The notes under the pieces were generated by a model, which had not been told where the DNA came from, made no database searches, and saw nothing but the letters and a program-made list of their open reading frames with translations. The translations under genes and the position numbers were made by a program. Below, piece after piece: positions 39,913-62,880 of a DNA stretch of 64,000 nt (positions are counted from its first letter, which is position 1; each line of letters begins with the position of its first letter). This DNA is from Acidobacteriota bacterium. Its GTDB lineage: Bacteria > Acidobacteriota > Blastocatellia > Pyrinomonadales > Pyrinomonadaceae. The stretch is taken from assembly GCA_020200235.1 (NCBI GenBank), contig JAIVJC010000008.1, positions 449 to 64,448 on the forward strand, written 5' to 3'.

Positions 39913-40020
39913 CGCTGTCTCCTTAATCGTCACCATTGCCCTTAAAAGAAGGGCGGGGACTTTAGCGCCGCCTTGACCACCCGCCGCGCTCCGAGCCTTT
40001 GACGGGTGAACGCACTCTTA

Positions 40021-43000: not shown

Positions 43001-43551
43001 GCGCCGTTGTTGGTGTCGGGATCGGTCGTGCCAACCTCGAACAGGTCGTCGTTGTTGTGCGAGACGCCGGGAGCCAGCGTGACGAGTTGCACCCAGTTGC
43101 GGTTGTTCAACGACAGCTCTCGCACCTGATCGCCGCTGATCAGCGTCGAGGCGGTCGGCGTGGTCAACTCGACCGTGAGTGGGTCGGCTTGGACCGTTAC
43201 GACCTCGGAGATGTTACCCGCCTCGAGTGCCACGTGGAGCGTGCGGCGCTGGTTCACGTCGAGCTTGACGTTGGTCTGGGCAGACTTCTTAAAGTTTGCT
43301 GCTTCGACCGTCACTGTGTAGACGCCGGCGGGCAGCGACGGCGCGGAGTATTCGCCGTCATCTCCCGTGGTGACCGTCCGCACCACGACCTTCTTTTCCT
43401 GATCGGTGATAGTGACTGTCGCGCCGGCGACGGTTGCGCCGGTCGAGTCCTTAACCGTGCCGTTGATCGTGCCGGTGACATCCTGAGCCGTGACGGCCGC
43501 AGTGCCGAGCGCGAGCGTGAGCGTGACGACCGATAAAATTCTTCTCAACAT
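40021..43551 (-). CDS. TonB-dependent receptor with N-terminal CarboxypepD_reg-like domain (1176 aa)
   Basis: ATG 43551 (MLRRILSVVTLTLALGTAAVTAQ) follows ggagg. The same domain pattern is present (TGTINGTVKDSTGATVAGATVTITD...GEYSAPSLPAGVYTV). LNNRNW is plug-like. The terminal sequence is F (GVKFYF). Confidence 0.9.
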   Translation of the reverse strand: MLRRILSVVTLTLALGTAAVTAQDVTGTINGTVKDSTGATVAGATVTITDQEKKVVVRTVTTGDDGEYSAPSLPAGVYTVTVEAANFKKSAQTNVKLDVNQRRTLHVALEAGNISEVVTVQADPLTVELTTPTASTLISGDQVRELSLNNRNWVQLVTLAPGVSHNNDDLFEVGTTDPDTNNGAPNILAISVNGARQSSNTYTVDGADTTDRGSNITIQTYPSVDAIGEFKVLRSLYPAESGRSGGGQVNVVTRSGSNDFHGTLFEFVRNERMNANDYFTNQNANAGLTSEGRARRRPLRYNNFGGTFAGPLYLPRFGEGGPVLYDGRNRTFFFLSMEYRRDIRYPSLPITTVPDANLRRGIFPIPVCLTVNATGTCTEVLPANTQLAANRISPVSQSYVNEIYNNLPLPNLTNFQLAATARNQVYFNQQLIKFDHNFTKNLSGFYRFQNDSIPSIDANAIFSSGTGLPGVSTVQTKSPGRSHVARATWALTPSAIIEGGYSFSYGAIKSENIGLLARNNSPISVALPFTVDSDRVPSVSGNGFTALGGFGPYDNFSFNKSLYANTSLLRGTHTTKFGGNVSWYRKNENALAGINEGQFSGFSATLPAGVTASTINQNIQRFANFLVGTNATFTQARFDFTADLRAKNLELFGQDEWRVRPNLTLYYGARYSVFGQPVDLNGRLSNFDPALYNPAQAPIVDGRGTRSGTFNPNNGFIVNASNPVAGATISPWGEQVVKTDKGNIAPRVGLAWDPFHDGKTAVRTGYGIYHDQVLLGIYLNAIGLNPTYQQTVTINNTRLDNPLAGAEGTPSATVFSRVRGVQTNFQTPYTQHWSLDVQRQLTQKTVMTVGYYGSKGTHLPGLVDLNLLPPGFALTQNCRSNATAGSTTIVPCQQRGIAFVGGAAAGSPQNSNILNQIRPYRGYQSVEIVQTRFNSNYNSLQTFLQHRFTGASQVNVAYTFSKNLSDNRSDRSNPPQNPYDIRLDYGRANLDRRHILSVNYIYELPWFKDQRGAEGRLLGGWQFSGIVSYYTGVPFTATTSSFDASGVGTIPVPTAGNRPNQLCDPNQGGSHTQQQWFNTNCFSRNPATTATDVPNVLGNASINTIGGPPTSRVDLTVTKNVRLGESTRFQLRGEAFNLFNHTNFRAISTNVTASNFGAVTSTRDPRIIQLGVKFYF

Positions 43552-43670
43552 AAGGCTGCCTCCAGTGGTGAAAGGGGGTGAACGACTGCAATCATCAGAG
43601 CGCCCGGACGCGATGGCGTCCGCCGCGCCGGAACAATTTCTCAAACTTTTTCGCGGCTCCCCGCCGCCGC

Positions 43671-45175
43671 TCATCGCGACGCGACCGCGGACGACGGCGG
43701 CGCGGCTCCCGCGCCGCGCAGCGCCGCGCCGGGGCGCGCCTCGGTCATGCGCGAGTCGGCGAAGACCTCCGCGCCGTTGACGACGACGTGGCTCAAGCCC
43801 GCCGGGTACTGGTGCGGCTGCTCGAAGGTGGCGCGATCCGCGAAGAGCGCGTCGTCGAAGACGACCACGTCAGCCGCGTAGCCCTCGCGCAGCAAGCCCC
43901 GATCCGTCAGGCGGAAGGTCTGCGCCGGCAGCGAGGTCATCTTCCTGACGGCGTCCTCGAGCGTGACGATCTTCAGCTCCCTCACGTAGCGACCGAGCAC
44001 GCGCGCGTTGTTGCCGTAGCCGCGCGGGTGCGGGACTCCGTCGCCGAGCCGGTGCACGCCCGAGTCCGACGCGATCATGGTGAAGGGCTCGCGCATGATC
44101 GCCTGCACGTCGCGCTCGTCCATGCTGTGGTAGATCATGCCGGCTCCGCCCGCCGCGTACATCTCGAGCATCTGCTCGATCTGGCTGTCGGCGTCCTTCT
44201 TCTTGCGCGCCTCGAGCGTGATCTGCGCGATGGACTTGCCGTTGAACGCGGGGTTCGGCGCGTAGCGCGCGACGACGGCGTAGGAGTAGTCCTTCTGCAT
44301 GCTCCGCTTGAGGGAGTCGCGCATCTCCTTGCGCACGCGCTCGCGCGTCGCCGGATCGCCCAGCCGCTTCTTCCCCTCCTCGCGCCCGCCTTCGAGGAGC
44401 CACGAGGGCAGGCGCGAGTCGAGCGAGGTCGAGCTCGCCGTGTAGGCGTACTGATCGACCGTCACGGCGAGACCGCGAGAGCGCGCCTCGCGCACGAGAC
44501 CGAGCGTCATCTGGCTCTCGCCCCACAGGCGCTTGGTGCTGATCTCTTCGCGTAAGTGCCGGGGACGTAGATGAGCCCCGTGGAGAGACCGACCGCGCCG
44601 TCGCGCATCGCCTGCTCGACGATCGACTCCATCTGCCGCAACTCGTCGGGCGAGGGCTCGCGGTTGACGAGCCCCATCACTTTCTGCCTGACCGAGCCGT
44701 GCGCGACGAGCGTGGCGAGGTTGACGGCGAGCGGCGTCTTCTGCGCGCGACCGAGGAACTCCGCGACGTTCGTCGCCGAGCTCCCGCAGTTGCCGGTGAC
44801 GAGCGTGGTCACGCCCATCCGCACGAAGTTCTCCGCCGCCGGCTGGTTGTAGATGCTCTCGACGTGCGTGTGCACGTCGATGAAGCCGGGCGCGACGATC
44901 TGGTTGCGCGCGTCGATGACGGCGCGAGTTTCCGCCGGGCTGATGCGGCCCACGCGCGCGATGCGCCCGTCCTTGATCCCAACGTCGGCGCGGAACCACG
45001 GGTTGCCCGTGCCGTCGACGATCCGCCCGTTCGTGATCAGGAGATCGTAAGCTGGCGCGCCCGCCTGCGGCGGCGGCTGCTGCCCGCGCGGGGTCGCGGC
45101 CGGACTTGCGAGCAAGGCGGCGACAAGCGCGGTGAAGATCAGACGCCGGGTGAATGTCTGGGTCATCAAGCTCAC
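43671..45175 (-). pseudogene. N-acyl-D-amino-acid deacylase (D-aminoacylase) disrupted by internal deletion and frameshift
   Basis: The N-part (44507..45175 frame) has a signal peptide, GFIDVHTH and ...GLSTGLIYVPGTYA. Homology then continues in another frame (EEISTKRLWGES...VDQYAYTASSTSLD...HPRGYGNNARVLG...). About 50 aa expected between the two parts, including the SHxR His region, are absent. Confidence 0.7.
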
Positions 45176-45631
45176 GCGGGAGGCGGACGCGCCACGCGTG
45201 CGTGCGCGCCTAAGCCATTTAATTAGAGTGTCTGGTTGCAGTCGGACGAAGCTCTAACGGGACGCGGCGGCGGACAAAGCCCCTCGGACGGACGCCGCTT
45301 TGGTATCAGCGCGCACATTCTAATGAACGTGCCTGCGATAATGAAAGCTAAAAGTTTTTATCTGCGGCATAAGGAGCTGTAATGTCACGGGCGCGCGCCG
45401 CGCCGCCCCCGACGACCGGCGCGCAGTGCGCCGGAGTGATATTTCGGGGGTGCAATTCATGTTCCGACGCGGCGCGATCGCGTTTCCTCTGGGGATTCGT
45501 CGCGTGCGGCTCACGCCTTACAAAAAAATGGACGCGCCCCTACGCTTTTTCGGATTCGACTACGAGCCGCGCGCCGCGAGAGTCGGGGGCGCGGTCGGGC
45601 GCGCGCGCGCGCGGCGGCTAAAACTTTTCCC

Positions 45632-45659
45632 TTGACGGTGAGCGCGCCGCCTGTATATT
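45632..45659 (+). promoter_or_regulatory. Sigma70-like promoter candidate for the 45854 receptor gene
   Basis: TTGACG (45632-45637), a 16-nt spacer, then TATATT (45654-45659). It is preceded by CTTTTCCC and would give a leader of about 190 nt. Confidence 0.35.
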
Positions 45660-45853
45660 TTGCGTCATTCATTCTTGAGAGTGGCGCGCCGCCCGGCGCG
45701 GCTGTTGTGTTCGAAGGGCGGCGACTCGCAGAAGCGCGAATCATTTTCTCCAAACTCTTTCCGGCTCTCCGGCAGCGATCCTACGGCGCGGAGTTTCCCG
45801 CGCCTCCCAGCCTTCGCAGGCTTTGCTGTTTCCCACTTCCCAGGAGGTCTCTC

Positions 45854-48800
45854 ATGTCACGTATCATCCCGCGCGCCCTCTGCCTCGCCGCCGCACTCGT
45901 CCTCGCGGCGGGAACACTTTCCGCGCAGACATCAACCTCGCGCATCACGGGCACCGTCACCGATTCGACCGGCGCGGTCGTCGCGGGCGCGACCGTCACG
46001 GCGAAGAACGAAGCGACCGGCGTCACGCAGACGCAGGTGACGACCGACTCCGGTCTCTACGCCTTCACCTCGCTCCCCGTCGGGGCGTACACCGTCTCGG
46101 TGGAGCGGCAAGGGTTCAAGACTGCACAGCGCACCAACAACCAACTGCTCGTCAACACGCCGCTCTCCGTCGACATGGTGCTCGAAGCCGGCAACGTCTC
46201 CGAGGTCGTCACCGTGCAGGGCGGCGCGGAGCAGCTCCAAACCTCGAACGCCACCATCGGCAACGTCGTCGAGCAGAAGGCTATCGAGCAGCTCCCGCTG
46301 AACGGTCGCAACCCGCTCACCCTCCTCGTCTACGAGCCGGGAGTCGTGCAACGCTCGGCGGGAGGCGCGGGCTCCGGCATCCACGTCAACGGCTCGCGCG
46401 ACCGCGCCTTCAACGTGACCATCGACGGCATCGAGGCGAACGAATCGTCCGTGCCCAACCCGGTCTCGAACCTCTACCGCCTGAACCCCGACAACGTGCA
46501 GGAGTTCAAGGTCACGACCAACAACGCGACCGCCGAAGAGGGGCGCAACTCCGGCGCGTCGATCTCGGTGCGCACCCGCTCGGGGACGAACGAGCTGCAC
46601 GGCAACGCCTTCTACTTCCACCGCAACGACGCGCTCAACTCCAAAGAGTTCTTCGCCAACGCCCTCAACCAGCCGAAGCAGATCATCAAGCTCCACCAGT
46701 TCGGCGGCGAGGCGGGCGGCCCCGTCATCCGCGACAAGACGTTCTTCTTCGGCAGCTACCAGATGAACCGCGTCTCCTTCACTCAGGCCATTGACCAAAC
46801 CTTCGGCGTGCCCATCGTCTACACGGGGCTCGCGCGCCAGGGCATCTTCCGCTATTTCGTGCCCGACCCGGCGAACCCGCTCGTCATCAACGGCACGACC
46901 ATCACGCGCAACAGCCGCCTCCTCGTCGATTCATCGACGGGCAACCTCGTCTCCGGCGTGAGCCTCTGCTCGACGCCGACGCAGTTGCGCTGCGTCCGCA
47001 CCTACAACGTCCTCGACCCGGCGAACAACACGGGCGGGCGCACCTTCGATCAGTCGGTCGCCGCCCTGATCAACCGCTACCCCGCGCCGAACAACTTCAA
47101 CGTGGGCGGCGACGGTCTCAACACCGGCGCGTACCTCTGGAACCCGCCGACGAAGATCAAGGGGCCCGCCTACATGGCGCGCATCGATCACACCTTCAAC
47201 CAGTCGAACAGCATCTTCGGCCGCTACCTCTTCTCCGACTACAACACGCTCGAAGGCGATCCGCTGAACGGCAGGCCGCAGGTCTTCCCCGGCTTCGCGC
47301 CGCTCGGCGAAGTTTACCGCCGCACCTCCGGTCTCGCGCTCAACTACCGCCACGTCTTCTCGCCCTACATCACCAACGAGGTGACGGTCGGCTACGGGCG
47401 CTTCCAGTTCCTCTTCACGCAGGGCGAGGCGAACCCCGACTTCCCGAACGTGCCGCCCTTCGACTTCAACAACCTGAGCGAGCCCTACAACAACACGCCG
47501 CGCACGGCGCGCGCCGTCACCACGCCGCAGATTCTCGACAACCTGACGGTCGTCCGCGGCGCGCATGTCATAGGCGCTGGCGCGAACATTCGCGTCTATC
47601 GCCACGTCGATCAGCGCGGTCAGCCGGGCGGCATCAACGTCACGCCCGCCATCGACTTCGCGCCTAGCCGCCGCAACCCGTTCGCCGCGGGCGGCGGCTT
47701 CACCACGGCGGCGAACATCGACACCACCACTGACATCACGACCCTTCGAGGTCTCATCAACAACGTCTTCGGTCTGCCTGCCCGCATCCAGCAGACCTTC
47801 ATCTCTAACCTCAACCAGGACGTCTTCCTGCCCTTCAAGGTCGGCGATCAGGTGACGCTCTTCGCCGAGCAACACAAGCTCAACCAGTTCAACTTCTACG
47901 CGCAGGACGAGTGGAAGGCGCGCCAGAACCTGACGCTCAGCTACGGCTTGCGCTGGGAGATTAACCCGGCGGCGACCACCGTCGGCGGCTCAGTCCTGCG
48001 ACCGACGACCGCGATCACGAACCAGACCGTCACGTTCGCGCCCGCCGACACCTGGTACGACACCACGAAGTTGGGCGTCTTCGGACCGCGCCTCGGTCTC
48101 GCGTGGTCACCCGCCTTCAAGAGCGGCCCGTTCAAGTCGCTCTTTGGCACGAACAGCCGCAGCGTCATCCGCCTCGGCTACGGCATCGCCTATGACACGA
48201 TCTCTTCGTTCCAGGTGACAGCCGCCGCCGGGCGTGTCCCCGGCTTACTCGTTACCTGTTCATCCACCTTCAACAATACGACGCAGACCTTCAGCACCGC
48301 GACTAACGGCTGCGTGCCGCCGACGAGCACGAGCCTCGCAGGCGGCTTCCCGCTCCTGTTGTCCCCGCCGACGACGAAACCCTCTTCATTCCTGACGCTA
48401 CCCGTCCAAACCGTCAATAACGCGCCACCCGTGACGGTTTTCGCACCCGAGATGAAAGTCCCGACGGTGCACCAGTGGAATGTCTCGTTCCAGCGGGAGT
48501 TGCCGGGCGGCTTCGTCGGGCAGATGGCATACGTCGGTCGCGCGGGCAACCGCCTCTTCATGGCGTACAACATCAACCAGATCAACTCCGATCCGATCCT
48601 GCCGTCGTTCCTGTTGCTACAGGAGAACGTGCGCCGCGGGTGTAACCCGGCGGGCACGGTCTGCGTCGGGGGCGCGACCCCGATCCCGGCGTCGCAAATT
48701 CCGCTCATCGGTCAGCTCAACGCCCTCGGCGGCGGCACCGCCGGCGTCACCTTCGTCAACTCGGACGACGTGGTGGGCGACCTCAGGCTCAACGCGGCGG

Positions 48801-49720
48801 GCGCGACCGTCGACCGCATCGAGCAGAATGCGGCGTTCCTGCCGCTGCGTCTCAGACGCAACCAGCAGTTCTCGACCATCACTTACCTCGACAACAGCGG
48901 CGCGTCTAACTACCACTCCGCGCAGTTCACCTTGCGCAAACGCTTCGCCGCCGGTCTCGGCTTGAGCGCGGCTTACACCTTCGGCAAGTCGATCGACAAC
49001 CAGTCGGTCGATCCCGTGGGCGCGGCGTCGGGCGGTGGTCTCTCGCAAACCAACTCGCGCACGCCGACTGACATCCGCAACTTCCGCGAGGAGCGCGCCC
49101 GCTCTGACTTCGACCGCCGCCACGTCTTCACGATGACCTCTTCGTGGGAAGTGCCCGTCGGCAAGGGTCGCCGCTTCCTGGCGGACTCCCCCGGAATCGT
49201 CAAAACCCTTCTGGGCGACTGGAGCATCAACGGCATCTTCAACGCGATGTCGGGCGAGCCCTTCTCGGTGCGCAGCGGCGCGCGCACGTCCAACTCGGCT
49301 CACGAGTCTCGCGCGGCGGTCCTGAACTTCGTCCAACCGGAGTTGCAAGACCTCCCGAACGTCCGCGGGCCCGTGCTCTTCCCGAACGCGAACAACTTCG
49401 CGCTCCCGCAGCCGGGTACGAACGGGGCGGGGCGCAACATCTTCACCGCGCCCGGCTACTGGAACCTCGATCTCTCCTTCATCAAGTTCTTCAACGTGAC
49501 GGAGCGGCTCAGGGTGCAGTTCCGCACGGAGATGTTCAACGCGCTGAACCACGCGAACTTCGACAATCCGCGCGATGCTTCGGTCGGCAGCCCGAGCTTC
49601 CGCTCCGACGTGTTCGGGCAGACCTGCTGCGCTGCTGTCGCGCCCCCTTCGGCGCAGACCATCATCCAGACGGGCGAGTCGTCGCGCGTCATCCAGTTCG
49701 GTTTGAAGATTCAGTTCTAG
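45854..49720 (+). CDS. TonB-dependent receptor with N-terminal CarboxypepD_reg-like domain (1288 aa)
   Basis: ATG 45854 lies 6 nt after aggagg. Signal peptide ALCLAAALVLAAGTLSAQ. The domain pattern is TGTVTDSTGAVVAGATVTAKNEATG...GLYAFTSLPVGAYTV. LNGRNP is plug-like. The terminal sequence is F (GLKIQF). Confidence 0.9.
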   Translation: MSRIIPRALCLAAALVLAAGTLSAQTSTSRITGTVTDSTGAVVAGATVTAKNEATGVTQTQVTTDSGLYAFTSLPVGAYTVSVERQGFKTAQRTNNQLLVNTPLSVDMVLEAGNVSEVVTVQGGAEQLQTSNATIGNVVEQKAIEQLPLNGRNPLTLLVYEPGVVQRSAGGAGSGIHVNGSRDRAFNVTIDGIEANESSVPNPVSNLYRLNPDNVQEFKVTTNNATAEEGRNSGASISVRTRSGTNELHGNAFYFHRNDALNSKEFFANALNQPKQIIKLHQFGGEAGGPVIRDKTFFFGSYQMNRVSFTQAIDQTFGVPIVYTGLARQGIFRYFVPDPANPLVINGTTITRNSRLLVDSSTGNLVSGVSLCSTPTQLRCVRTYNVLDPANNTGGRTFDQSVAALINRYPAPNNFNVGGDGLNTGAYLWNPPTKIKGPAYMARIDHTFNQSNSIFGRYLFSDYNTLEGDPLNGRPQVFPGFAPLGEVYRRTSGLALNYRHVFSPYITNEVTVGYGRFQFLFTQGEANPDFPNVPPFDFNNLSEPYNNTPRTARAVTTPQILDNLTVVRGAHVIGAGANIRVYRHVDQRGQPGGINVTPAIDFAPSRRNPFAAGGGFTTAANIDTTTDITTLRGLINNVFGLPARIQQTFISNLNQDVFLPFKVGDQVTLFAEQHKLNQFNFYAQDEWKARQNLTLSYGLRWEINPAATTVGGSVLRPTTAITNQTVTFAPADTWYDTTKLGVFGPRLGLAWSPAFKSGPFKSLFGTNSRSVIRLGYGIAYDTISSFQVTAAAGRVPGLLVTCSSTFNNTTQTFSTATNGCVPPTSTSLAGGFPLLLSPPTTKPSSFLTLPVQTVNNAPPVTVFAPEMKVPTVHQWNVSFQRELPGGFVGQMAYVGRAGNRLFMAYNINQINSDPILPSFLLLQENVRRGCNPAGTVCVGGATPIPASQIPLIGQLNALGGGTAGVTFVNSDDVVGDLRLNAAGATVDRIEQNAAFLPLRLRRNQQFSTITYLDNSGASNYHSAQFTLRKRFAAGLGLSAAYTFGKSIDNQSVDPVGAASGGGLSQTNSRTPTDIRNFREERARSDFDRRHVFTMTSSWEVPVGKGRRFLADSPGIVKTLLGDWSINGIFNAMSGEPFSVRSGARTSNSAHESRAAVLNFVQPELQDLPNVRGPVLFPNANNFALPQPGTNGAGRNIFTAPGYWNLDLSFIKFFNVTERLRVQFRTEMFNALNHANFDNPRDASVGSPSFRSDVFGQTCCAAVAPPSAQTIIQTGESSRVIQFGLKIQF

Positions 49721-49735
49721 TCTTCGACCGCTCAC

Positions 49736-49784
49736 ACGCAAAGAGAGTGGCGCGCCAACCAAAGGCGCGCCACTCTCTTTGCGT
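49736..49784. terminator. Perfect 21-bp hairpin between convergent genes (bidirectional terminator candidate)
   Basis: acgcaaagagagtggcgcgcc (49736-49756), a 7-nt loop, then ggcgcgccactctctttgcgt (49764-49784). Confidence 0.7.
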
Positions 49785-49857
49785 TCGACTAATTCGATCT
49801 ACCTCGCACGAGCTGGCGCGGGCGTCCGCCGTCTCGACTGCCCGCGCGCCCCGCGCC

Positions 49858-51066
49858 TTACTTCCCCGAAGGCCGAGTCTTTAGCTTGCCCACCGCGTCC
49901 CTGATCTCGGCGGCGTTGCGCGCGTCGGGCACGTCCTTTAAATACTGCTCGAAGGCGAGCCGGGCGAGATCGAACTTCTGCTGGTGGAAGTAGAGCTGAC
50001 CGAGCATGAGCTGCGCGTAGCCGGCGCGCGCGCCGCCGAGCTCGTAGGCGCGCAGCAGCGAGCGCTCAGCCTCCGGCAGCTGCTTGAGCTGGATCAGACC
50101 GCCGCCGAGCAGCAGGTGCGCGTTGAACCCTGTGGGCTCAAGCTCGGTCGCGCGCCGCAACTCCCTGACCGCCTCCACCATTTTAGCCTCGCGGCTCAGC
50201 ACCCGCCCCAGTTTGTAATGCAGCTCAGCCCGCTCCTCGCGCGAGAGGGTCTCTCCGGCGAGACCGGCGCGCAGAGCCTTGGCGGTCTCAGCCAGGCGTC
50301 CCGCGTCGTAGAGCGCGTCGGCTAAGCTCGCGCGCAGGCCGGGCAGCAACGGGTTCTCTTTGAAGAGCGTCTGGAGCAGGTCGGCGGCTTCGTCGTGCTT
50401 GCCCATGCGGTTGAGCGTGATGCCGAGGTTGAGCCGCGAGGGGGCGAAGCGGTTGCTGATCTTTATCGCGCGCTGGAAGGTGTCGGCTGCTTCCTCCAAC
50501 CGATTAATCTTCATGTAGACGACGCCGAGATCGTTGAGCGCGCGCAGGTACTGCGGGTGAAGACTCACGGCTCGCTTGAGGCTCTCGATGCCGGCGTCGG
50601 TCTGCCCCTTGACTATCGCCTCCATCCCCTCCCTGTAGGCTGACTGCGCGCCCGCCGGCACGTCCGCGTCGAGGGTGGCGACATCGATCACGCCCGCGCG
50701 CGGCGTCGCGGCGGCTTTGAGCGGGCGGAGGAAGACCGTCGTGTAAGGGATGTCGCCCATGTTGGAGAGGCGGAACACGACCGTCGTGTCGTCGTACGTC
50801 TGCCGGTCGCCGTTGACGAAGATGGTGTAGTTGCCGGGCTTCATGAGGGATCGGGGCATGCTGTATTTGCCCTTCGAGTCCGTGTAGAGCGTCTCGATGC
50901 GCCCGTCGTCGCGCGACAGCGTGAACCGTAACTCGTGGCTGAACTGGCCCCCGCCCGGCATGAAAAACTGGATGACGGGCGGAGCGCCCGGGCTTTGGGC
51001 CGAGACGCCGAGCGTGCACAGGAGGATGACGTGCGCGAGGAGAAGAAGGGTTCGCGTGAGTCTCAT
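49858..51066 (-). CDS. Secreted TPR-repeat protein with beta-rich N-terminal domain (copy 1)
   Basis: ATG 51066 (MRLTRTLLLLAHVILLCTLGVSAQ). The N-domain reads VIQFFMPGGGQFSHELRFTLSRDDGRIETLYTDSKGKY. About 7 TPR units follow (e.g. YLRALNDLGVVYMKINRLEEAADTFQRAIKI). It is a paralog of 55585..56784. Confidence 0.8.
   Translation of the reverse strand: MRLTRTLLLLAHVILLCTLGVSAQSPGAPPVIQFFMPGGGQFSHELRFTLSRDDGRIETLYTDSKGKYSMPRSLMKPGNYTIFVNGDRQTYDDTTVVFRLSNMGDIPYTTVFLRPLKAAATPRAGVIDVATLDADVPAGAQSAYREGMEAIVKGQTDAGIESLKRAVSLHPQYLRALNDLGVVYMKINRLEEAADTFQRAIKISNRFAPSRLNLGITLNRMGKHDEAADLLQTLFKENPLLPGLRASLADALYDAGRLAETAKALRAGLAGETLSREERAELHYKLGRVLSREAKMVEAVRELRRATELEPTGFNAHLLLGGGLIQLKQLPEAERSLLRAYELGGARAGYAQLMLGQLYFHQQKFDLARLAFEQYLKDVPDARNAAEIRDAVGKLKTRPSGK
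50521..50588. repeat. 68-nt tract identical to 56248-56315 (inside the two TPR paralogs)
   Basis: gacgccgagatcgttgagcgcgcgcaggtactgcgggtgaagactcacggctcgcttgaggctctcga occurs at both places. The flanking paralogous sequence is clearly diverged. Confidence 0.85.
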
Positions 51067-51228
51067 GTTCGTCGCCCCTCGGCTGCGATGGTTGACCCCT
51101 TGCCGGTTGAGGCGCAAGGATACCTCCGAGGGCGCGGCGCCGTCTAGCCTCACGCCCTCGCCTCGCACGTCGGTGCCGGGGTCGAGCCTTCGGCGTGCGT
51201 GCAGGCGAGCGCGCCGGATTAATTTTCC

Positions 51229-51257
51229 TTGACCTGACTCAGGCACACCGGTATCTT
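51229..51257 (+). promoter_or_regulatory. Sigma70-like promoter candidate for the 51490 receptor gene
   Basis: TTGACC (51229-51234), a 17-nt spacer, then TATCTT (51252-51257). It is preceded by ATTTTCC and would give a leader of about 230 nt. Confidence 0.35.
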
Positions 51258-51489
51258 GCCCGCAACGTTGGCAGAACCGAACCGGGGTCGAGGGATTACC
51301 TGCGCGAAGGGTTGTCGTTTTTTCCGTCCCAGCTGAATCCTTTAAAGCTAGCCGTCACGTCTTCAACATCGAGGGGTATCATTCGTCCGGCGAGTGTAGC
51401 TACGAGCACGACCTCCCCCGCCCACACCGCAGTCGCCCGCCGCCAGGCGAGCGCACTCGGGAATCTTAAGCCTCTGGAAGGAGCCCACC

Positions 51490-54400
51490 ATGAAAAAGTT
51501 CATGCCTGCCGTCGCCGCCGCGCTCTGCCTCGCGGCGCTGCTCTCCGCGCACGCCTTCGGGCAAGCCACCACCACCAGCTCCCTTAACGGCTCTGTGACC
51601 GACGCGCAGCACGCCGTCGTCGCGAACGCCAACGTCGTCGTCAGGAACACGGCGACCAGCGCCGAGTTCAACGTCCAGACCGCCGACAACGGCACGTTCA
51701 CCGTGCCCGCGCTGCCCGCCGGCACCTACACGGTGACGATCACGGCGCAGGGCTTCAAGCAGTCGCTCGTGCAGGACGTGAAGGTGGAGCTGACCCGCCC
51801 GGCGTCGGTCAACGTCATGCTCGAGGTCGGCGCGGTGACGGACGTCGTCACCATCACGGGCGGCGGCGAGGTCTTGCAGTCGACGAATGCCACCATCAGC
51901 TCGACCATCACGGGGCGGCAGATCATCGAGCTCCCCTTCGCCACGCGCGACGCGCTCCAGCTCGCCCTCGTGCAGCCGGGGACGCAGACGGCGACCGTGC
52001 CGCGCGCCTCGACGATCAACGGGCTCCCCAAAGCCAGCGTCAACATCACCCTCGACGGCATCAACGTGCAGGACAACCTGCTGAAGTCATCGGACGGGTT
52101 CTTCACCTCGACGCAGGCGAAAGCCGACGCCGTCGGCGAGATGACGCTCTCCTCCGCCGTCCCCGGCGCGGAGAGCGGCGCGGGCGGCGCGTCGCAGATT
52201 CGCTTCTCGACCAAGAGCGGGACCAACGAGTTCCACGGCGGCGGCTTCTGGCAGCACCGTAACACGGCGCTCAACTCGAACTACTACTTCAACAACATCG
52301 ACGGGCTGCGGCGCGACTTCCTCATCCTCAACCAGTTCGGCGGCCACCTCGGCGGCCCCGTCATGAAGAACAAGCTCTTCTTCTTCGTCAACTATGAGGA
52401 GTTCCGTCTGCCCCAATCCTACCCCGCCGCCAGGACGGTTCTGACGGACAAGGCGCGGAGCGGCATCTTCACCTACAAGGATACGGGCGGGGTCGTCCGC
52501 GAGGTCCCCCTCTTCGCCATCGCGGCGGCGCGCAACCCGACCTTGCCGTCGAACGTGCGCCCCTACGCCACCACCGCCGATCCGATCGTCACAAACCTGC
52601 TGGGGCTGTTCGCGCAGGGCGTCGCTCAAGGCGGCACAATCCGCAGCCGCATCGGGAGCGCGAACGACTACAACCGGCTCGACTACAACTTCCAGGCGCC
52701 GGGCACCAACATCCGCCGCTTCCCGACCTCGCGCTTCGACTGGAACATCAACAAGAACCACCAGGTCGAGTTCAGCTACCACTACCAGCAGTACTTCTCC
52801 AACCCTGACGCCGTCAACGGTCAGTTGCCGGTCGTCCCCGGAGCCGGGATCGTGCTCGGGGCGGAGTCGAACACGACGGGCAGCATCCGGCGCAACGCCT
52901 TCTCGTTCGCCGGGGCGCTGCGCTCGACCCTCTCCACGACTTTAGTCAACGAGGCGCGCTACACGCTCGGCAACGGCGGCATCTCGATCTTCGGCGGCGA
53001 GGTGAACCCGACGCTCTTCGCCGGGCGGCGCGGCTACACGCTCGGCTTCCCCTTCGGCAGCAACCCGCAGACGCGCAGCACGCAGTCGCGCCGCCACACC
53101 CCGGTCACGACCATCTACGACACGCTGACCTGGACGAAGGGCGAGCACTCGATCAACTTCGGCGGCAGCCTCACCCACGTCAAAGGCTTCCAGCAGAGCC
53201 AGGGCAGCGAGACGATCCCGGCCGCCAACTTCGGCATCGCCGCCGGCGATCCCGTCAACAACGGCGCGACCGCGATCTTCACCCTGGCGAACTTCCCCGG
53301 CAGCAGCAGCGGTCAGCGCAGCGAAGCCGCCAACCTCTACGCCCTGCTGACGGCGCGCGTGAGCAGCCTCACCTACCGCGCCACGCTCGACGAGGAGCAC
53401 CAGTTCGGCACGACGCCCTTCGAGGAGCAGAACTTCCACAACGAGCTGGGCTTCTACGCGCAGGATCAGTGGCGCTTCCGCCCGAACCTCACGCTCAACT
53501 ACGGCGTGCGCTGGGAGATCGACTTCGCGCCGCGCAACCAGAACGGCGTCTACACCACCGCCGGCTACGAGTCGGTCTACAGCGTTTCGGGTGTCGGCAA
53601 CCTCTTCAAGCCCGGCGTCTACACCAACAACACGATGCCCCAGTTCCGGCTCGTCGATGAGAACACTAAGCCCTACAAGACACGTTACAACGACTTCGCC
53701 CCCTCCTTCGGCGCGGCCTGGTCGCCGAACCTCGGGGCGAAGTCCGAGCTGCTCAGGCGCGTCTTCGGGAAGGGCGGGCAGACGGTCTTGCGCGGCGGGT
53801 ACTCCATCGCCTTCGTGCGCGAAGGCTTCGACACTTTCTACAGCATGTGGGGCCTCAACCCCGGCCCCTTCCTCAGCCTGAGCGTGAGCCCCGGGACGAC
53901 GCCCGCCGACTTCGTCGGCCCGAGCGGGTTCAGCGGTCCCGGCAGCGTCTACTTCCGCGACCCGACTCTGCCGCGGCGGCTCCCGCCCGCGCAAGCCCAA
54001 TTCCCGATCACGCCGGGACCGGGCGAAGATTTCAACGAGTGGTCGCCCAATCTCCGGATGGGCTACGTCCAATCCTGGTCGGTCGGCATCCAGCGCGAGC
54101 TGAGCAAGAACATGGCGTTCGAGATTCGCTACGTCGGCAACCACGGGACGAGCCTCTGGCGTCAGTACGAGCTCAACGAGGTGAACATCTTCGAGAACGG
54201 GTTCCTCGACGAATTCAAGATCGCCCAGGAGAACCTGCGGCTGGCGCGCCTCAGCAACCCGACGAGCAACAACTTCGGCCCGCAGGTTTCCGTGCCCGGG
54301 ACGAGGCCCATCCCGATCATCTCGACGGCTCTCGGCCTGACGACGGACGAAGGTTTCGCGACCACGATCCGGCGCGGGCTGGCGGGCAGCCTCGCGAACA

Positions 54401-55494
54401 GCATCGCGTTCAACACGACCCGCATGAATAATCTGCTGTTCGCCGGCCCCACACAGGCCGGGCTGCCGGGCGTCTCCTGGGTTGAGCTGCCCGGCTCAAG
54501 TTGCACGCGGCCAAACCCACCAGGCTCGCCCTCAGGAACCGTCACCACGGGTCCGTGCCGTGTGTCGAACTTCTTCATCGTCAACCCGCTGGCGACCGGG
54601 GGCTCGTTCCTCGTCACCAACGACGGTCACTCCACCTACAACGCGATGCAGGTGGAGCTCAGGCGGCGGCTCTCGCGCGGCTTGCTGGTGGACGGCAGCT
54701 ACACCTTCGCGAAGTCTCTGACGAACATGTTCGCCAACAGCTCGTCGGTCTTTAGCCAGCCCACGACCTTGCGGGATAAGGGTTACGACAAAGGTCCTTC
54801 GCCCTTCGACCTGCGCCACGCCTTCAAGATCAACGGCATCTACGAGCTGCCCTTCGGGCCCGGTCGCCGCTTCCTGGACAGCACGAACCCGGTCTTCAAC
54901 AAGCTGCTCGAAGGCTGGCAGATCGGCGGGGTGGCGCGCATCCAGTCGGGGACGCCGCTCCGCATCACCGGCGGTCGCGCGACTTTCAACGACAAGGAGA
55001 ACGGCGTGGTGCTCCACAACATCACGCGCAATCAACTCCAGAGCCTGGTCAAGCTCCGGAAGACGCCGAGCGGCGTCGTCTACTGGCTGCCCGACTCGAT
55101 CATCCAGAACTCGCTGGCGGCGTTCGAAGTCGCCGGCGCGCCCCCGCTCGACCCGAGCGCGCCTTACATCGGGCCGCCGACGACGCCGGGCGAGCTCGGC
55201 GCGCGCCTCTTCCTCTACGGTCTCTGGCAGAAGCGTATCGACTTGAACGTGCTCAAGAAGACCCGGATCACGGAGCGGGTTAACATGGAGTTCCGCGCCC
55301 AGTTCTTGAACGCTTTCAACTACCAGAACTTCTTCGCCGGGAGTGTGAACAGCGTCAACAGCCCGATCCTCGGCGACGGGGGCATCGGCTCGCAGTTCGG
55401 CCAGACCCGCTCGGCTTACCGCGACAACACCGTCTCCGGCACCAACGATCCGGGCGGGCGGCTGATCGAATTCCAGATCCGCCTCAACTTCTGA
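51490..55494 (+). CDS. TonB-dependent receptor with N-terminal CarboxypepD_reg-like domain (1334 aa)
   Basis: ATG follows ggaaggag. Signal peptide AAALCLAALLSAHAFGQ. The domain pattern is NGSVTDAQHAVVANANVVVRNTATS...GTFTVPALPAGTYTV. The terminal sequence is F (QIRLNF). Confidence 0.9.
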   Translation: MKKFMPAVAAALCLAALLSAHAFGQATTTSSLNGSVTDAQHAVVANANVVVRNTATSAEFNVQTADNGTFTVPALPAGTYTVTITAQGFKQSLVQDVKVELTRPASVNVMLEVGAVTDVVTITGGGEVLQSTNATISSTITGRQIIELPFATRDALQLALVQPGTQTATVPRASTINGLPKASVNITLDGINVQDNLLKSSDGFFTSTQAKADAVGEMTLSSAVPGAESGAGGASQIRFSTKSGTNEFHGGGFWQHRNTALNSNYYFNNIDGLRRDFLILNQFGGHLGGPVMKNKLFFFVNYEEFRLPQSYPAARTVLTDKARSGIFTYKDTGGVVREVPLFAIAAARNPTLPSNVRPYATTADPIVTNLLGLFAQGVAQGGTIRSRIGSANDYNRLDYNFQAPGTNIRRFPTSRFDWNINKNHQVEFSYHYQQYFSNPDAVNGQLPVVPGAGIVLGAESNTTGSIRRNAFSFAGALRSTLSTTLVNEARYTLGNGGISIFGGEVNPTLFAGRRGYTLGFPFGSNPQTRSTQSRRHTPVTTIYDTLTWTKGEHSINFGGSLTHVKGFQQSQGSETIPAANFGIAAGDPVNNGATAIFTLANFPGSSSGQRSEAANLYALLTARVSSLTYRATLDEEHQFGTTPFEEQNFHNELGFYAQDQWRFRPNLTLNYGVRWEIDFAPRNQNGVYTTAGYESVYSVSGVGNLFKPGVYTNNTMPQFRLVDENTKPYKTRYNDFAPSFGAAWSPNLGAKSELLRRVFGKGGQTVLRGGYSIAFVREGFDTFYSMWGLNPGPFLSLSVSPGTTPADFVGPSGFSGPGSVYFRDPTLPRRLPPAQAQFPITPGPGEDFNEWSPNLRMGYVQSWSVGIQRELSKNMAFEIRYVGNHGTSLWRQYELNEVNIFENGFLDEFKIAQENLRLARLSNPTSNNFGPQVSVPGTRPIPIISTALGLTTDEGFATTIRRGLAGSLANSIAFNTTRMNNLLFAGPTQAGLPGVSWVELPGSSCTRPNPPGSPSGTVTTGPCRVSNFFIVNPLATGGSFLVTNDGHSTYNAMQVELRRRLSRGLLVDGSYTFAKSLTNMFANSSSVFSQPTTLRDKGYDKGPSPFDLRHAFKINGIYELPFGPGRRFLDSTNPVFNKLLEGWQIGGVARIQSGTPLRITGGRATFNDKENGVVLHNITRNQLQSLVKLRKTPSGVVYWLPDSIIQNSLAAFEVAGAPPLDPSAPYIGPPTTPGELGARLFLYGLWQKRIDLNVLKKTRITERVNMEFRAQFLNAFNYQNFFAGSVNSVNSPILGDGGIGSQFGQTRSAYRDNTVSGTNDPGGRLIEFQIRLNF

Positions 55495-55526
55495 CCCGGC
55501 GATCCGAGATCGACCGGCGCATTAAA

Positions 55527-55565
55527 GAAGGGGCGCGCGAGTTCAACGAACTCGCGCGCCCCTTC
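55527..55565. terminator. GC-rich hairpin between convergent genes (bidirectional terminator candidate)
   Basis: gaaggggcgcgcgagtt ... aactcgcgcgccccttc, a stem of about 17 bp with a 3-5 nt loop. Confidence 0.7.
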
Positions 55566-55584
55566 CCTTTCCGCGTCGCTGCTC

Positions 55585-56784
55585 TTACTTGCCGCGCAAC
55601 CTGTTCTTGATCTTCACAGTCAGCGCCGTAATCTGCGCCGCGTTCGGCGACTGCGGCACGTCCTTCAGATACTGCTCGAAGGCGCGCAGCGCCGGCTCGA
55701 ATTTATTCTGCTCCAGGTAGAGCTGCCCGAGCAGGAGTTGCGCGTGCCCGACTCCCGCCCCGCCCAGCTCGTAGGCGCGCAGGAGAGACTTCTCCGCCTC
55801 CTCGGGGCGTTTCAACTGGAGCAGCCCGCCGCCCAAGAGCAGGTGCGCGTTCGCCGCGTCGGGCTGTAGCTCGACCGCGCGGCGCAGCTCCTTGACCGCC
55901 TCCGCGACCTTGTCCTCGCGGCTCAGCACGCGCCCGAGTTTGTAGTGCAGCTCGCCGCGCGCCGCGCGGTCGAGCCCTTCGCTGTCGAGCGCGGCGGCGA
56001 GTAGTTTCCGCGCCTCGCCGAGCCGACCCACGCCGTAGAGCGCGTCGGCGTAAGTGACCCGCGCGCCTTCGAGGTTCGGGCTGTCGCGGAAGAGCGTCTC
56101 CAGCAGCGCCACCGCCTCCTCGTGCCGGCCCTGCCGGTTCAGCACCGCGCCGAGGTTGAGGCGCGCGTGGGGGAAGCGGCTGTTGATCTTGATCGCGCGG
56201 CTGAAAGAGTCGGCGGCTTCGTCCAGCCGGTTCGACTTCAGGTAGAGGACGCCGAGATCGTTGAGCGCGCGCAGGTACTGCGGGTGAAGACTCACGGCTC
56301 GCTTGAGGCTCTCGACGGCTTCGGCGAGTCTCCCCTTGCCCGCCGCTTCCATCCCGGCGTCGTATGCGGCGCGCGCCGCGGCGGGCACGCCCAGATCGAA
56401 CTCGGACAGATCGACGACGTTCGCAGGGGGCACCGGCACGCCCTTCAGCGGTCTGAGGAAGACGGGCACGTAGGTGACGCCGCCCCCGGCGACGATGCGG
56501 AAGTTGGTGGTCGTCGTCTCGTAAGTCCGACCGTCGCCGTAAGCGGTCACGGTGTAGCTGCTCTCTTGCGAGAGGCTCCCGGTGAGATCGAATTTGCCCT
56601 TCGAATCCGTGAAGAGGGTTTCGACCCGCCCGTCGTCGCGCGTGAGCGTGAAGCGAATCTCCCGCGCCGGGTGCGACCTGTCGGGCATGAAGAACTGTAT
56701 GACGTGGGGAGCCTGCGCGCGGGCGCTCGCGGCGCACGCCAGGAGGCAGAGGGCGAGGGCGAGACTGTTTCGACGGACGCTCAT
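55585..56784 (-). CDS. Secreted TPR-repeat protein with beta-rich N-terminal domain (copy 2)
   Basis: 399 aa. The signal region has a possible lipobox (ALCLLACAASARAQ). The N-domain reads VIQFFMPDRSHPAREIRFTLTRDDGRVETLFTDSKGKF and TPR units follow. Confidence 0.8.
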   Translation of the reverse strand: MSVRRNSLALALCLLACAASARAQAPHVIQFFMPDRSHPAREIRFTLTRDDGRVETLFTDSKGKFDLTGSLSQESSYTVTAYGDGRTYETTTTNFRIVAGGGVTYVPVFLRPLKGVPVPPANVVDLSEFDLGVPAAARAAYDAGMEAAGKGRLAEAVESLKRAVSLHPQYLRALNDLGVLYLKSNRLDEAADSFSRAIKINSRFPHARLNLGAVLNRQGRHEEAVALLETLFRDSPNLEGARVTYADALYGVGRLGEARKLLAAALDSEGLDRAARGELHYKLGRVLSREDKVAEAVKELRRAVELQPDAANAHLLLGGGLLQLKRPEEAEKSLLRAYELGGAGVGHAQLLLGQLYLEQNKFEPALRAFEQYLKDVPQSPNAAQITALTVKIKNRLRGK

Positions 56785-56857: not shown

Positions 56858-57730
56858 TTACGGGTAAAGCGAATTGAGCAGGTTCGCGAGCCGGTAGCCC
56901 GCGAGCGCGATCCGTCTGCGCGCCGTCGCCTGCGCCTTCGCCTCGTAGGCTGGCGTCGGCTTGGAGTTCTCCGCGAGCGCGTAGACGACCGTGCGCGCCA
57001 GCGCGTTGCCCTCCTCCGCCCACTTCTGCGGGTCGAGTTCTTTAGCCTCCGGCATCGACGCAACCGGGTTCGCCGCGACTATTTCTTTCGCGTAGGCGTC
57101 GAGCCGTCGGCGGTCGCGCGCGTCGAGCGGTCGGTCGGGTCGCCAGAAGTGGAACGAGCCCGCCGCCGAGTCCCAGTAGTAGTGGAGGTGATCGACTTCG
57201 GGCAGGCCCGCGAGCTTGAACTCGTTGCCGCCCGCGTCGCCGTCGAGGTTCGTCGGCGTCACCCGCGTCGAGGCGTGCAGCGGCTGGTGGATGTCACCGA
57301 CGAGGTGGTAGAGGTAGCCGAGCAGCTCCGCGTCCTTCTTGTCCGAGCCGGGGCCCTTGCGCAGCGCGTCCGCCGCCCAGATGATGCGCGCGACGGCGTG
57401 CTCCTTGCCCGGCTGCAACTTCGGGTCGGGCGGCGTGCCGTCGAAGATGGGGATGTCGGTGTAGTGCCACACGCGCAGATCGTCGTGCGTCGAGTCCGCC
57501 TTGATGTCGTCCATCCACGCGCCGAGCGTCGTGCCGTCGTAGGTCTTGCCGCAGAAGCGGATCGTCTTCGCCATCGCGTCCACCTTCGCCTTCGCCGCCG
57601 CGCTCAGGCGCTCGTAGGCGATCTGCGAGACGAGCAGGTGCCCCGCGTCGTCCCACGCGAGGGCGGTCTGCGGCGCGAGCAGCAGCAGCGAGAGCAGGAG
57701 CGGCAGAGCCTTCAAACTTTTTCCCATCAT
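56858..57730 (-). CDS. S1/P1-type zinc nuclease, secreted
   Basis: The signal peptide ends ...APQTALA, followed by WDDAGH (the mature N-terminal Trp ligand). Motifs HYTDIP, LYHLVGDIHQPLH, GGNEF and HYYWDS are in S1/P1 order. Confidence 0.8.
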   Translation of the reverse strand: MMGKSLKALPLLLSLLLLAPQTALAWDDAGHLLVSQIAYERLSAAAKAKVDAMAKTIRFCGKTYDGTTLGAWMDDIKADSTHDDLRVWHYTDIPIFDGTPPDPKLQPGKEHAVARIIWAADALRKGPGSDKKDAELLGYLYHLVGDIHQPLHASTRVTPTNLDGDAGGNEFKLAGLPEVDHLHYYWDSAAGSFHFWRPDRPLDARDRRRLDAYAKEIVAANPVASMPEAKELDPQKWAEEGNALARTVVYALAENSKPTPAYEAKAQATARRRIALAGYRLANLLNSLYP

Positions 57731-57792
57731 TTCAACTCCAAAAGCGTTTTATGAGAGCAGGGTAATACCTATCCTCTAAGGTGCAGGCATTC

Positions 57793-58765
57793 CTATGCCT
57801 CGTAGGGACCCAAGAACCGCGCACCGTTGAAGTGAATCATGTGGGTAGCTGCCTCGGCAACCCACACCTCGGTCTCTCCATGATATTTCGCCGAGGTATT
57901 TGAGCAGCGTCCTGCGGTCGAGGAATGCGGTGACGAATACCAAACCCGCCTTCGAGCCACGGAATAGGGCTTTCAATTCTTCGTGGCGTTTCGGGTTCAC
58001 GGGTCCGTGGCTCGTGACGGCTTCGACGAGCACCAACCAATTCCGCTCGACGTGATGCACGACGACATCAGGCATCTTGCCGTGCGCGTCCACGCTGATT
58101 CCTAGCTCCGCGAAAGTCTCCTGATCGAAGATCGCCCACTTCTCGTCGGCATCGCCGACGTAGACCACCCTACCGCCCGGCGTGAAGTAGGGGCAAAAGT
58201 CCTCGATGATTCTAGCGATCAAAACGTTCTGACCGCCCGCCGAGAGCGTGAAGGTTCGACCTGTCGGTGTCGTGACAGGTATGCGGCTCATCTCGCGCGC
58301 CTGCGTGTATTTCTCCTGTAGCGTCTCAACGGTCGGCAGATAGGCCTGCAATTTTTGCTCCCACTAGTCGGAGCCGAAGGCGCGCAGTACCTCCAACGCG
58401 GCGGCTTCGATCTGATAGACGGTCTTGCCGCTGTTGATGGGGCGCGATGGCTTGTCGGGGTTGGCGATGATCAGCGCGGCGTCGCGGAACTGATGCACGG
58501 TCTGGCGGCGCACGCTCTCGCGCGTGTTCGGCTTGTACTGCTTGCCGTAGTGCTCGGCGAAGAAGTCCATCATCTCCGTCACTCCTCGCAGCGGCGCGCG
58601 CGCCTCTGCCCACGGCGTTTCCGGTCGTAGGTCGAGCAGCGCGAGCAGCGTGAGCGCGGATCGCTCGTTCTGCTGCGCCGAGGGCAAGCCGAGGGCTTTC
58701 AGGGCGCGCGCGGCTTCGTCAATTCGCTTCTTCGCAGGGATCGGATCGGAGGTGTCGGTGTTCAT
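57793..58765 (-). pseudogene. PstI/BsuBI-family type II restriction endonuclease, disrupted by in-frame TAG and a 1-nt frameshift
   Basis: The N-domain runs from ATG 58765 (LGLPSAQQNERSALTLLALL, NTRESVRRQTVHQF, PSRPINSGKTVYQIE). TAG occurs at 58364-58366. The same frame then continues with the catalytic domain (GGRVVYVGDADEKW, HGKMPDVVV, VEAVTSHGPV, VFVTAF). The conserved tail [30 protein letters not shown] is readable only by skipping nt 57877. Confidence 0.75.
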
Positions 58766-60286: not shown

Positions 60287-60345
60287 CAGCGGTGGAGAGG
60301 AACTGCGACACCCTGCGCGCAGATGTCGCGGATGAGATAATTCAT

Positions 60346-62880
<2,535 letters not shown>

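Follow-up and report, generated by a model that had tools for sequence, protein, structure and literature searches.

The window analysed here is a stretch of 64,000 nucleotides from an Acidobacteriota bacterium (Blastocatellia; Pyrinomonadaceae; assembly GCA_020200235.1, contig JAIVJC010000008.1, positions 449-64,448 of the forward strand), and the features under study are two pairs of convergent genes, each pair consisting of a very large TonB-dependent receptor gene and a gene for a secreted tetratricopeptide repeat (TPR) protein. Receptor A (45851-49720, + strand, 1289 amino acids (aa)) lies tail to tail with TPR-A (49858-51066, - strand, 402 aa from MRLTRT), and receptor B (51490-55494, + strand, 1334 aa) lies tail to tail with TPR-B (55585-56784, - strand, 399 aa), which is the last gene of a co-directional string. 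A perfect G+C-rich hairpin separates the stop codons of each pair (49736-49784 and 55527-55565). All four genes and both hairpins are situated where the initial annotation, made from the sequence alone, had placed them.

By their domain content, receptors A and B are Oar-class TonB-dependent transporters, and the Oar subclass comprises their closest described relatives. Receptor A has a signal peptide, a carboxypeptidase-D-regulatory-like extension (CarboxypepD_reg), the TonB-box-like motif SEVVTVQG, a Plug domain and an OMP_b-brl_4 barrel. The CarboxypepD_reg extension (PF13620) scores 71.3 and 66.9 bits in receptors A and B, respectively (cut-off 32.3), and the barrel (PF25183) scores 542 bits (E 1e-162) and 453 bits (E 1e-135; cut-off 30). 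Plug (PF07715) is matched by receptor A (33.4 bits; cut-off 23.9); receptor B gave no match at E<=0.01, and despite this it aligns with receptor A across the Plug region. The TonB-box-like motifs, SEVVTVQG in receptor A and TDVVTITG, were read from the sequence and compared with DEVVVTG of Bt1763. A sequence search of the PDB with receptor B found nothing. The receptors of the window appear to share the order of parts of Oar of Myxococcus xanthus, namely a signal peptide, a CarboxypepD_reg extension, a TonB-box-like VVT(V/I), a plug (matched in receptor A) and a very large barrel, and the Oar architecture (PF13620 extension, Plug and barrel) accounted for 28% of the TonB-dependent transporters in PMC6434023. 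The receptors of the window differ from Oar in that they are 1289-1334 aa long, match PF25183 rather than PF00593 and have no adjoining ExbB, ExbD or TonB genes; no such domains were found among the window's larger open reading frames (ORFs), which were the ones scanned against Pfam. Furthermore, no TPR partner has been described for Oar, and for the window receptors both PopC-like export and import are conceivable.

TPR-A and TPR-B are 60% identical over 374 aa. They had been described as obvious paralogs with a signal peptide, a beta-rich N-terminal domain (N-domain) and about seven TPRs, and this description is borne out by the alignment and by the structural model given below. TPR_16, TPR_2 and TPR_19 are above the Pfam cut-offs in these proteins. 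TPR-B has hundreds of full-length relatives with 50-88% identity; their named sources are Pyrinomonadaceae, Blastocatellia or Acidobacteriota, and their labels are of the generic TPR kind only. In an alignment of 37 family members, conservation runs along the entire length of the protein. In 62 of 78 family members an AxA-type site, immediately ahead of the N-domain, closes the signal peptide, Gln occupies position +1 in 75 of 78, and a lipobox-like site is present in only five of the 78. Because the AxA site is the rule and the lipobox is rare, the TPR protein is probably a signal peptidase I substrate and, most simply, periplasmic. The 'LLAC' of TPR-B, taken earlier as a hint of a lipoprotein, is no family feature, and its cysteine is not conserved. 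Receptors A and B, and most type-1 receptor orthologues, likewise have Gln as the mature N-terminus after the predicted signal peptidase I site (...AQ...); within the window these N-termini are placed at 56715 (TPR-B), 45920 (receptor A) and 51562 (receptor B). The mature Gln found here is reminiscent of the N-terminal pyroglutamate that is described as habitual for secreted proteins of Bacteroidota.

An AlphaFold2 model made from the 37-member alignment (pLDDT 89) begins with a signal helix, followed by a beta sandwich of seven strands (residues 27-109); a linker modelled with low confidence leads to 15 helices, which form seven TPRs and a capping helix. When the whole model was searched with Foldseek, the top 50 PDB matches were canonical TPR solenoids only (designed CTPRs, OGT and PEX5; E 1e-14). 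Because the solenoid dominated this search, the N-domain was modelled separately (pLDDT 93), and its matches are transthyretin, HIU hydrolase and carboxypeptidase D's transthyretin-like domain (5aq0_B, TMt 0.73). As modelled, the N-domain has a transthyretin-like fold, the same as that of the receptors' own N-terminal extension. When 1.84 billion proteins were searched exhaustively with the N-domain, 75 cluster representatives emerged. Almost every one is a protein of ~400 aa with the architecture of the TPR proteins or a fragment of one, and the few distant matches are proteins with tandem Ig or CarboxypepD_reg repeats.

The receptor-TPR pairing recurs in related Blastocatellia. A locus search with TPR-B as a single protein returned generic TPR genes only, and the family alignment was required as query: the 37 aligned members, with one genome taken per species, yielded 80 loci (labelled L005 and so on; clusters of neighbouring proteins are labelled c3, c5, c16 and c36). 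Convergent pairs were counted in the 74 loci whose downstream DNA extends for at least 700 bp, and upstream neighbours in 69 loci. In 41 of the 74, the TPR stop has a convergent receptor gene of ~1300 aa no more than 600 bp away, whereas no other neighbour of the TPR gene is conserved in more than 20 loci. Receptor genes also occur 10-160 bp upstream of the TPR gene on the same strand (8 of 69 loci) and upstream in divergent orientation (7 of 69). The background in the flanks is 46 other receptor ORFs in 1.18 Mb, and the expected rate per neighbouring position is ~3% (convergent) to ~6% (any orientation), giving binomial P values of 1e-41 to 1e-29 for the pairing, uncorrected for shared ancestry. 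In the reciprocal scan, which took the best 80 receptor-B-type loci, the downstream DNA suffices in 59: 33 of them have a convergent TPR gene, one has a co-directional one and two have it farther away, and 23 have none. A neighbourhood survey had been set beforehand as the test of the pairing, lack of enrichment near TonB-dependent receptors being the result that would speak against it, and enrichment is what was found in both directions. The statement in the initial annotation that the two genes are not co-transcribed holds for the window, but in several genomes the TPR gene follows a receptor by 10-160 bp on the same strand.

The partner receptors fall into three clades that are at most 36% identical to one another. 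The first comprises receptor B and its counterparts in 27 loci, and 28 of 37 pairs belong to one orthologous receptor clade; the second comprises receptor A and the receptors of L005 and L006; and the third (type-3) comprises receptors situated upstream of the TPR gene on the same strand. Receptor-B orthologues, with 50-78% identity, are present in these 27 loci of the pair set and in the 80 loci taken in the reciprocal scan. The genes upstream of the TPR gene form three unrelated contexts: a string that includes MurQ and NamZ, a UDG gene with a zinc-ribbon gene, and a PabB-like gene with a receptor. In the UDG/zinc-ribbon group, RlmH-DksA-ComF precedes the receptor on the receptor's strand. 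In L075 this RlmH-DksA-ComF-receptor block is intact and the TPR gene comes after the receptor on the same strand, a layout which implies that the TPR gene has been inverted and yet still abuts the 3' end of the receptor gene.

The initial annotation read the two pairs as a tandemly duplicated module. The layout is indeed present twice and the TPR gene is duplicated, but the receptors are only 29% identical, and the unit was not duplicated as a whole. Receptor-A orthologues (59-87% identity) are found in L005, L006, L012, L017, L018, L029, L050 and L055, and in genomes other than that of the window such orthologues (59-72%) share an island with receptor-B orthologues and a single TPR gene, either as TPR→ ←B ←A (L012 and L029) or with receptor A on the far side, as ←A TPR→ ←B (L017, L018, L050, L052 and L055). 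The TPR tree places TPR-B as sister to a clade of TPR-A and the TPR proteins of L005, L006, L011 and L013; the TPR gene is convergent to a receptor-A-type gene in four of these five (TPR-A, L005, L006 and L011), and L013 is without a convergent receptor. As both receptors are old and co-occur elsewhere with one TPR gene, and in view of this tree, it is the TPR gene alone that was duplicated in the sub-lineage of the window. Receptors A and B, which by their divergence are ancient paralogues, have each gained a tail-to-tail copy of their own, so that each copy settled beside a different, much older receptor. Duplication of the TPR gene only, beside two old receptors, argues for partner-specific use.

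A distant TPR paralogue (N-domain 53-68 bits) lies upstream of a receptor-B-type gene in L095, L099, L136, L150 and L153, often on the same strand; L153 is from a Chloracidobacterium metagenome-assembled genome. L062 and L147 show a tandem arrangement of a divergent TPR paralogue. With a divergent paralogue on the receptor's other side, some receptors are flanked by two members of the TPR family. In L039 and L057-L060 the convergent receptor is absent; downstream on its own strand, the TPR gene has a gene for an ECF-type sigma factor, two small ORFs and a gene whose product of ~1000 aa weakly resembles a receptor.

The hairpins lie 15-32 nt past the receptor stops, in keeping with the initial annotation. 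Hairpin 1 has a perfect 21-bp stem and a 7-nt loop, and hairpin 2 has a perfect stem of 17-18 bp flanked by AAAGAA and TTCCCTTT. The spacer containing hairpin 1 folds at -74.5 kcal/mol (z = -7.8 for the + strand and -6.8 for the - strand against shuffles) and that containing hairpin 2 at -51.6 kcal/mol (z = -5.5 and -6.9, respectively). Each is bordered by an A-rich tract and, on the opposite side, by a T-rich one, and the T-tracts are short (TCTCTTTGCGTT and TTCCCTTT); because of this shortness, neither hairpin was listed by a scan for consensus terminators. A perfect stem of at least 8 bp is present in 22 of 41 orthologous convergent spacers, and one of at least 10 bp in 19 of 41, with unrelated sequences. 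A conserved regulatory RNA or a recombination site is ruled out by this lack of relationship among the hairpins of orthologous spacers. Both are best read as putative bidirectional intrinsic terminators of the ordinary kind, which would insulate the convergent genes from each other.

Two further Oar-class transporter genes, for receptor D (40021-43674, - strand) and receptor C (36658-39936, - strand), belong to the same island, so that the window contains four receptors of this class (1092-1334 aa) within 19 kb (36658-55494). Other Blastocatellia also have orthologues of receptors A, B and D together, in shuffled order, as a conserved receptor island; those of receptor D (52-59% identity) come after an amidohydrolase gene (cluster c16) in L005, L010, L017 and L018. 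The region is best explained as belonging to a conserved island for outer-membrane uptake in Blastocatellia, in which several Oar-class transporters are accompanied by a lineage-specific secreted protein. A turn of the GC skew near 44-46 kb was rejected as a replication landmark, because it coincides with the coding-strand switch of the long receptor genes. The receptor A ORF spans 45632-49720, and the preferred start is the ATG at 45851 (MSRIIPRALCLAAALVLAAGTLSAQ...), where the signal peptide begins; the upstream TTG of the ORF, at 45632, falls on a promoter-like TTGACG-16-TATATT site (45632-45659, + strand). A second promoter-like site, TTGACC-17-TATCTT (51229-51257, + strand), lies in the divergent intergenic region between TPR-A and receptor B (51067-51489), where no conserved element was found. 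These sigma-70-like matches precede the start codons of receptors A and B by ~190 and ~230 nt, respectively, which would give the receptor genes long leaders. Neither a known RNA family nor any conserved sequence was detected in the two leaders, and an Rfam scan of the whole window returned no family, hence no riboswitch or known leader ahead of the receptors.

In the first of the three upstream contexts, the string consists of a NagK-like kinase, MurQ (385 bits, above the cut-off), an SSS symporter, a GH3 glycosidase and a PBP4B-like/NamZ fusion, with the TPR gene last, 4-52 nt after the NamZ gene or an S1/P1 nuclease gene. NamZ is an exo-beta-N-acetylmuramidase (PMC8054146). From GH3 onward, the string in the window is made up of GH3, PBP4B/NamZ, an inserted restriction-modification unit, the S1/P1 nuclease and TPR-B. 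The GH3 (NagZ-like) glycosidase (62888-63964, - strand; cluster c5, 17 loci) resembles beta-N-acetylhexosaminidase; its ORF as listed is without the first ~210 positions of the Pfam N-terminal domain, and the true start is probably further upstream, at or past the end of the window. The next gene (60346-62880, - strand; cluster c3) encodes a PBP4B-like beta-lactamase-fold domain fused to NamZ, and this cluster is present upstream of the TPR gene in 20 loci. The S1/P1 nuclease gene (56858-57730, - strand; cluster c36) lies 73 nt upstream of TPR-B on the same strand, and it is also a neighbour in L006, L011, L013, L019 and L029. Between NamZ and the nuclease, where other genomes have nothing, is the restriction-modification unit (57776-60868, - strand). 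Its 834-aa ORF contains an Eco57I-like methylase and the N-terminal helix-turn-helix domain of a BsuBI/PstI endonuclease, and its 191-aa ORF, which overlaps the former by 14 nt, contains the endonuclease catalytic domain. The unit has a lower GC content (0.637) and looks like an inserted, possibly frameshifted, mobile restriction-modification gene.

On the other side of receptor A, a D-aminoacylase-like amidohydrolase gene (43731-45184, - strand; cluster c16) heads a string to which receptors D and C also belong. The gene is broken near 44546: residues 1-207 are in one frame and 260-531 in another, with ~50 residues missing in comparison with orthologues of 544-553 aa, so that it is either a pseudogene or the product of an assembly error. 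About 130 nt upstream of its start is an AT-rich element of ~70 nt (45305-45380, - strand) composed of TTATC/GATAA inverted half-sites and a -10-like box, TTCATTAGAAT, in the form CTTATC-N5/6-GATAAAAnCTTTTAGCTTT-N2-TTAT-N12-TTCATTAGAAT. The loci contain 22 further copies, among them L005:1626, L005:15505, L007:5959, L010:5966, L010:15639, L015:5882, L015:17944, L018:15559, L021:1023, L021:17819, L066:5975 and L066:15839. Nearly every copy with a called downstream gene faces the amidohydrolase (c16), a receptor gene or the first gene of the MurQ string. For two copies (that of L006 and the window's own) no ORF was called, and the disrupted amidohydrolase was assigned as the target in the window by position. 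The element precedes a type-3 receptor gene and then the TPR gene in L007, L010, L015 and L066, and heads the MurQ string in L005 and L021. It has no match in Rfam. The presence of one element ahead of the salvage, amidohydrolase-receptor and receptor-TPR strings suggests that it is a candidate shared promoter or operator, and that the salvage enzymes, the receptors and the TPR gene may form a single regulon.

The reading of these results with the best support is that Oar-class receptors are functionally associated, in a real and lineage-specific way, with a periplasmic protein that combines a transthyretin-like domain with TPRs, and the two partners probably work together. That the TPR protein is a periplasmic accessory of Oar-class receptors, possibly in the uptake of peptidoglycan fragments, is in our judgement about an even chance. 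A number of observations weigh against the association. The pairing is absent in 33 of 74 TPR loci and in 23 of 59 receptor-B-type loci, and the two genes are tens of kb apart on one contig in L039/L109, L060/L112 and L079/L103; adjacency is thus not obligatory. Receptor-B-type genes have no TPR gene alongside in Bryobacteraceae, Solibacteraceae and Terriglobia, and in those groups this type of receptor can probably work alone. Many of the 41 pairs come from one ancestral arrangement, so that the binomial P overstates their independence, and the flanks are themselves rich in receptors, as the 46 further copies in 1.18 Mb indicate. Divergence of the TPR protein is weakly correlated with that of the receptor (Pearson 0.21, a value reached by 7 of 2000 permutations), and this mirror-tree result is excluded as evidence of co-evolution. 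The convergent genes of the window cannot share a transcript. Just 20 of 69 loci have the MurQ string, and only closer relatives were found to carry the GATAA element. Finally, the N-domain matches PF13620 weakly (17.9 bits, cut-off 32.3; E 0.004; TPR-B only), and hhalign relates it to the receptor extension with a probability of 21%, so that the relatedness of N-domain and extension rests on the fold.

Several of these points would be expected if the synteny were inherited without any shared function, the TPR protein being a general envelope protein that resides in a receptor-rich island and its local duplication having nothing to do with the receptors. Flanks rich in receptors, with four of them within 19 kb in the window itself, a single orthologous clade that supplies 28 of 37 pairs and so fits one ancestral arrangement, the loss of adjacency in 33 of 74 loci, the weak mirror-tree signal and the lack of co-transcription of convergent genes all suit this explanation. 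It is nevertheless somewhat unlikely, since the pair is kept in 41 loci, as against 20 or fewer for any other neighbour, and persists while the upstream genes are wholly replaced. In L075 the TPR gene has been inverted and is still adjacent to the receptor 3' end, two other receptor clades show the pairing as well, some of it as operon-like receptor-TPR pairs, and the distant TPR paralogue also flanks receptor-B-type genes in L095, L136, L150 and L153.

Secreted TPR proteins that act on outer-membrane machines are known, such as Tgl, PilW/PilF, BamD, CpoB/YbgF and NlpI, and the best matches of the TPR protein to named families are of this kind (Tgl 99 bits, YbgF 57 bits), all below the family cut-offs. 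Tgl, PilW, BamD, YbgF and NlpI differ from the present protein in having no N-terminal transthyretin-like domain, and none is known to pair with TonB-dependent transporters. The likeness raises the alternative that the TPR protein is a biogenesis factor, a periplasmic chaperone or pilotin that serves the assembly of the 1300-aa barrels and not transport. Similarity to TPR assembly factors and pilotins (Tgl, PilW, BamD, BepA and PgaA), the linkage to particular giant receptors and the behaviour of SusC would accord with this: in Bt1763, the N-terminal extension of SusC, which precedes the TonB box and has 5aq0 as its best structural match, is essential, since its deletion abolishes growth for reasons still unexplained, and the deletion is dominant-negative, for which the authors suggested that biogenesis could be the reason (PMC7782687). 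We regard a role in assembly as quite unlikely, however, because these matches are generic TPR similarities under the curated cut-offs, the equally large receptors C and D of the island have no adjoining TPR gene, and receptor-B-type genes occur without a TPR gene in other acidobacterial classes. Nor does it explain the position of the TPR gene at the end of the MurQ/NamZ operon.

That position would be accounted for if the TPR protein served the salvage operon only, by binding muropeptide stems or organising the NagZ-like and NamZ enzymes, and if the receptor were simply the next transcription unit. With MurQ, a sugar kinase, a NagZ-like GH3, NamZ and a PBP4B-like domain, the string resembles the N-acetylmuramic acid (MurNAc) salvage clusters of Escherichia coli (murQP-yfeW), Tannerella forsythia and Bacillus subtilis (NamZ; PMC8054146). 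The strings described here differ from these clusters in having an SSS symporter and not MurP or MurT, in the fusion of NamZ to a PBP4B-like domain and in ending with a TPR gene that faces an Oar-class receptor. Gaps of only 4-52 nt after NamZ or S1/P1, the MurQ, NamZ, PBP4B-like, GH3 and SSS annotations and the GATAA element ahead of the operon in L005 and L021 favour a role confined to salvage; it is very unlikely all the same, as the salvage string is present in 20 of 69 loci compared with the receptor in 41 of 74, the other upstream contexts keep the receptor and not the salvage genes, and the element also heads receptor-TPR and amidohydrolase-receptor strings, tying the receptors to the salvage genes.

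The pairing does resemble SusC/SusD (RagA/RagB), to which the initial annotation had likened it, in that the genes for a helical-repeat protein and for a receptor with a carboxypeptidase-D-regulatory-like extension are paired, and the fold of the SusC extension (closest match 5aq0) is that of the N-domain of the TPR protein. The partner here is a canonical TPR solenoid, predicted to be cut by signal peptidase I and probably periplasmic, whereas SusD is a surface lipoprotein with a fold of its own, and the genes are convergent, whereas susC and susD share one operon. SusD does have TPR-like helices. That the TPR protein is the surface-exposed lipoprotein lid of a SusC/SusD-like pair is extremely improbable and already contradicted, for in spite of the shared extension and the 'LLAC' of TPR-B, receptor A scores 15 bits against the SusC/RagA model TIGR04056 (cut-off 368.25) and receptor B has no match at E<=0.01, the TPR proteins match generic TPR families and no SusD family of Pfam, SusD is absent from the top 50 Foldseek PDB matches, a lipobox-like site occurs in five of 78 members as against an AxA site before Gln in 62, and no SusD-family lipoprotein gene follows the receptor in the same operon, the downstream gene being convergent.

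A functional association of the receptors with a periplasmic accessory protein would be realized as follows. The TPR protein, exported by Sec and cut by signal peptidase I before the conserved Gln, would be soluble in the periplasm and not a surface lipoprotein, and would act at the periplasmic face of the receptors. Its TPR groove may hold an extended peptide, for which the linker between extension and TonB box, TonB itself and the imported cargo are candidates, while the N-domain may pair with, or stand in for, the receptor's own extension. The cargo could be cell-wall material such as muropeptides or MurNAc, because in many genomes the TPR gene ends a kinase/MurQ/symporter/GH3/NamZ string and because of the shared upstream element. 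Both a physical interaction between the TPR protein and the receptor and a cargo derived from the cell wall are thus what we infer from gene context and fold. In its most far-reaching form, the proposal would define a new class of periplasmic TonB-transporter partner, in which a free-standing copy of the extension fold joined to a peptide-binding TPR solenoid docks on Oar-class receptors or on TonB and couples them to salvage enzymes in the import of cell-wall debris (necromass); in this form we consider it unlikely. A literature search found no paper that describes the receptor-TPR pairing.

The locus is seen here as a receptor-centred uptake locus with an accessory protein; its hairpins are probably routine terminators, and the SusC/SusD analogy should be dropped. 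Oar-type receptors with a CarboxypepD_reg extension make up a sizeable fraction of the known range of TonB-dependent transporters and are massively expanded in soil Acidobacteriota, and their substrates and the role of their extension are largely unknown. A linked periplasmic protein that has the fold of the extension together with a TPR scaffold is a concrete and testable candidate partner and, if the most far-reaching form of the proposal is correct, the TPR family would be the first handle on what the N-terminal extension of these receptors binds. The MurQ/NamZ operon and the shared element also suggest a route of uptake for peptidoglycan fragments in these abundant soil bacteria. The finding is chiefly of value as a lead to what the extension does and to how soil Acidobacteriota may scavenge peptidoglycan.

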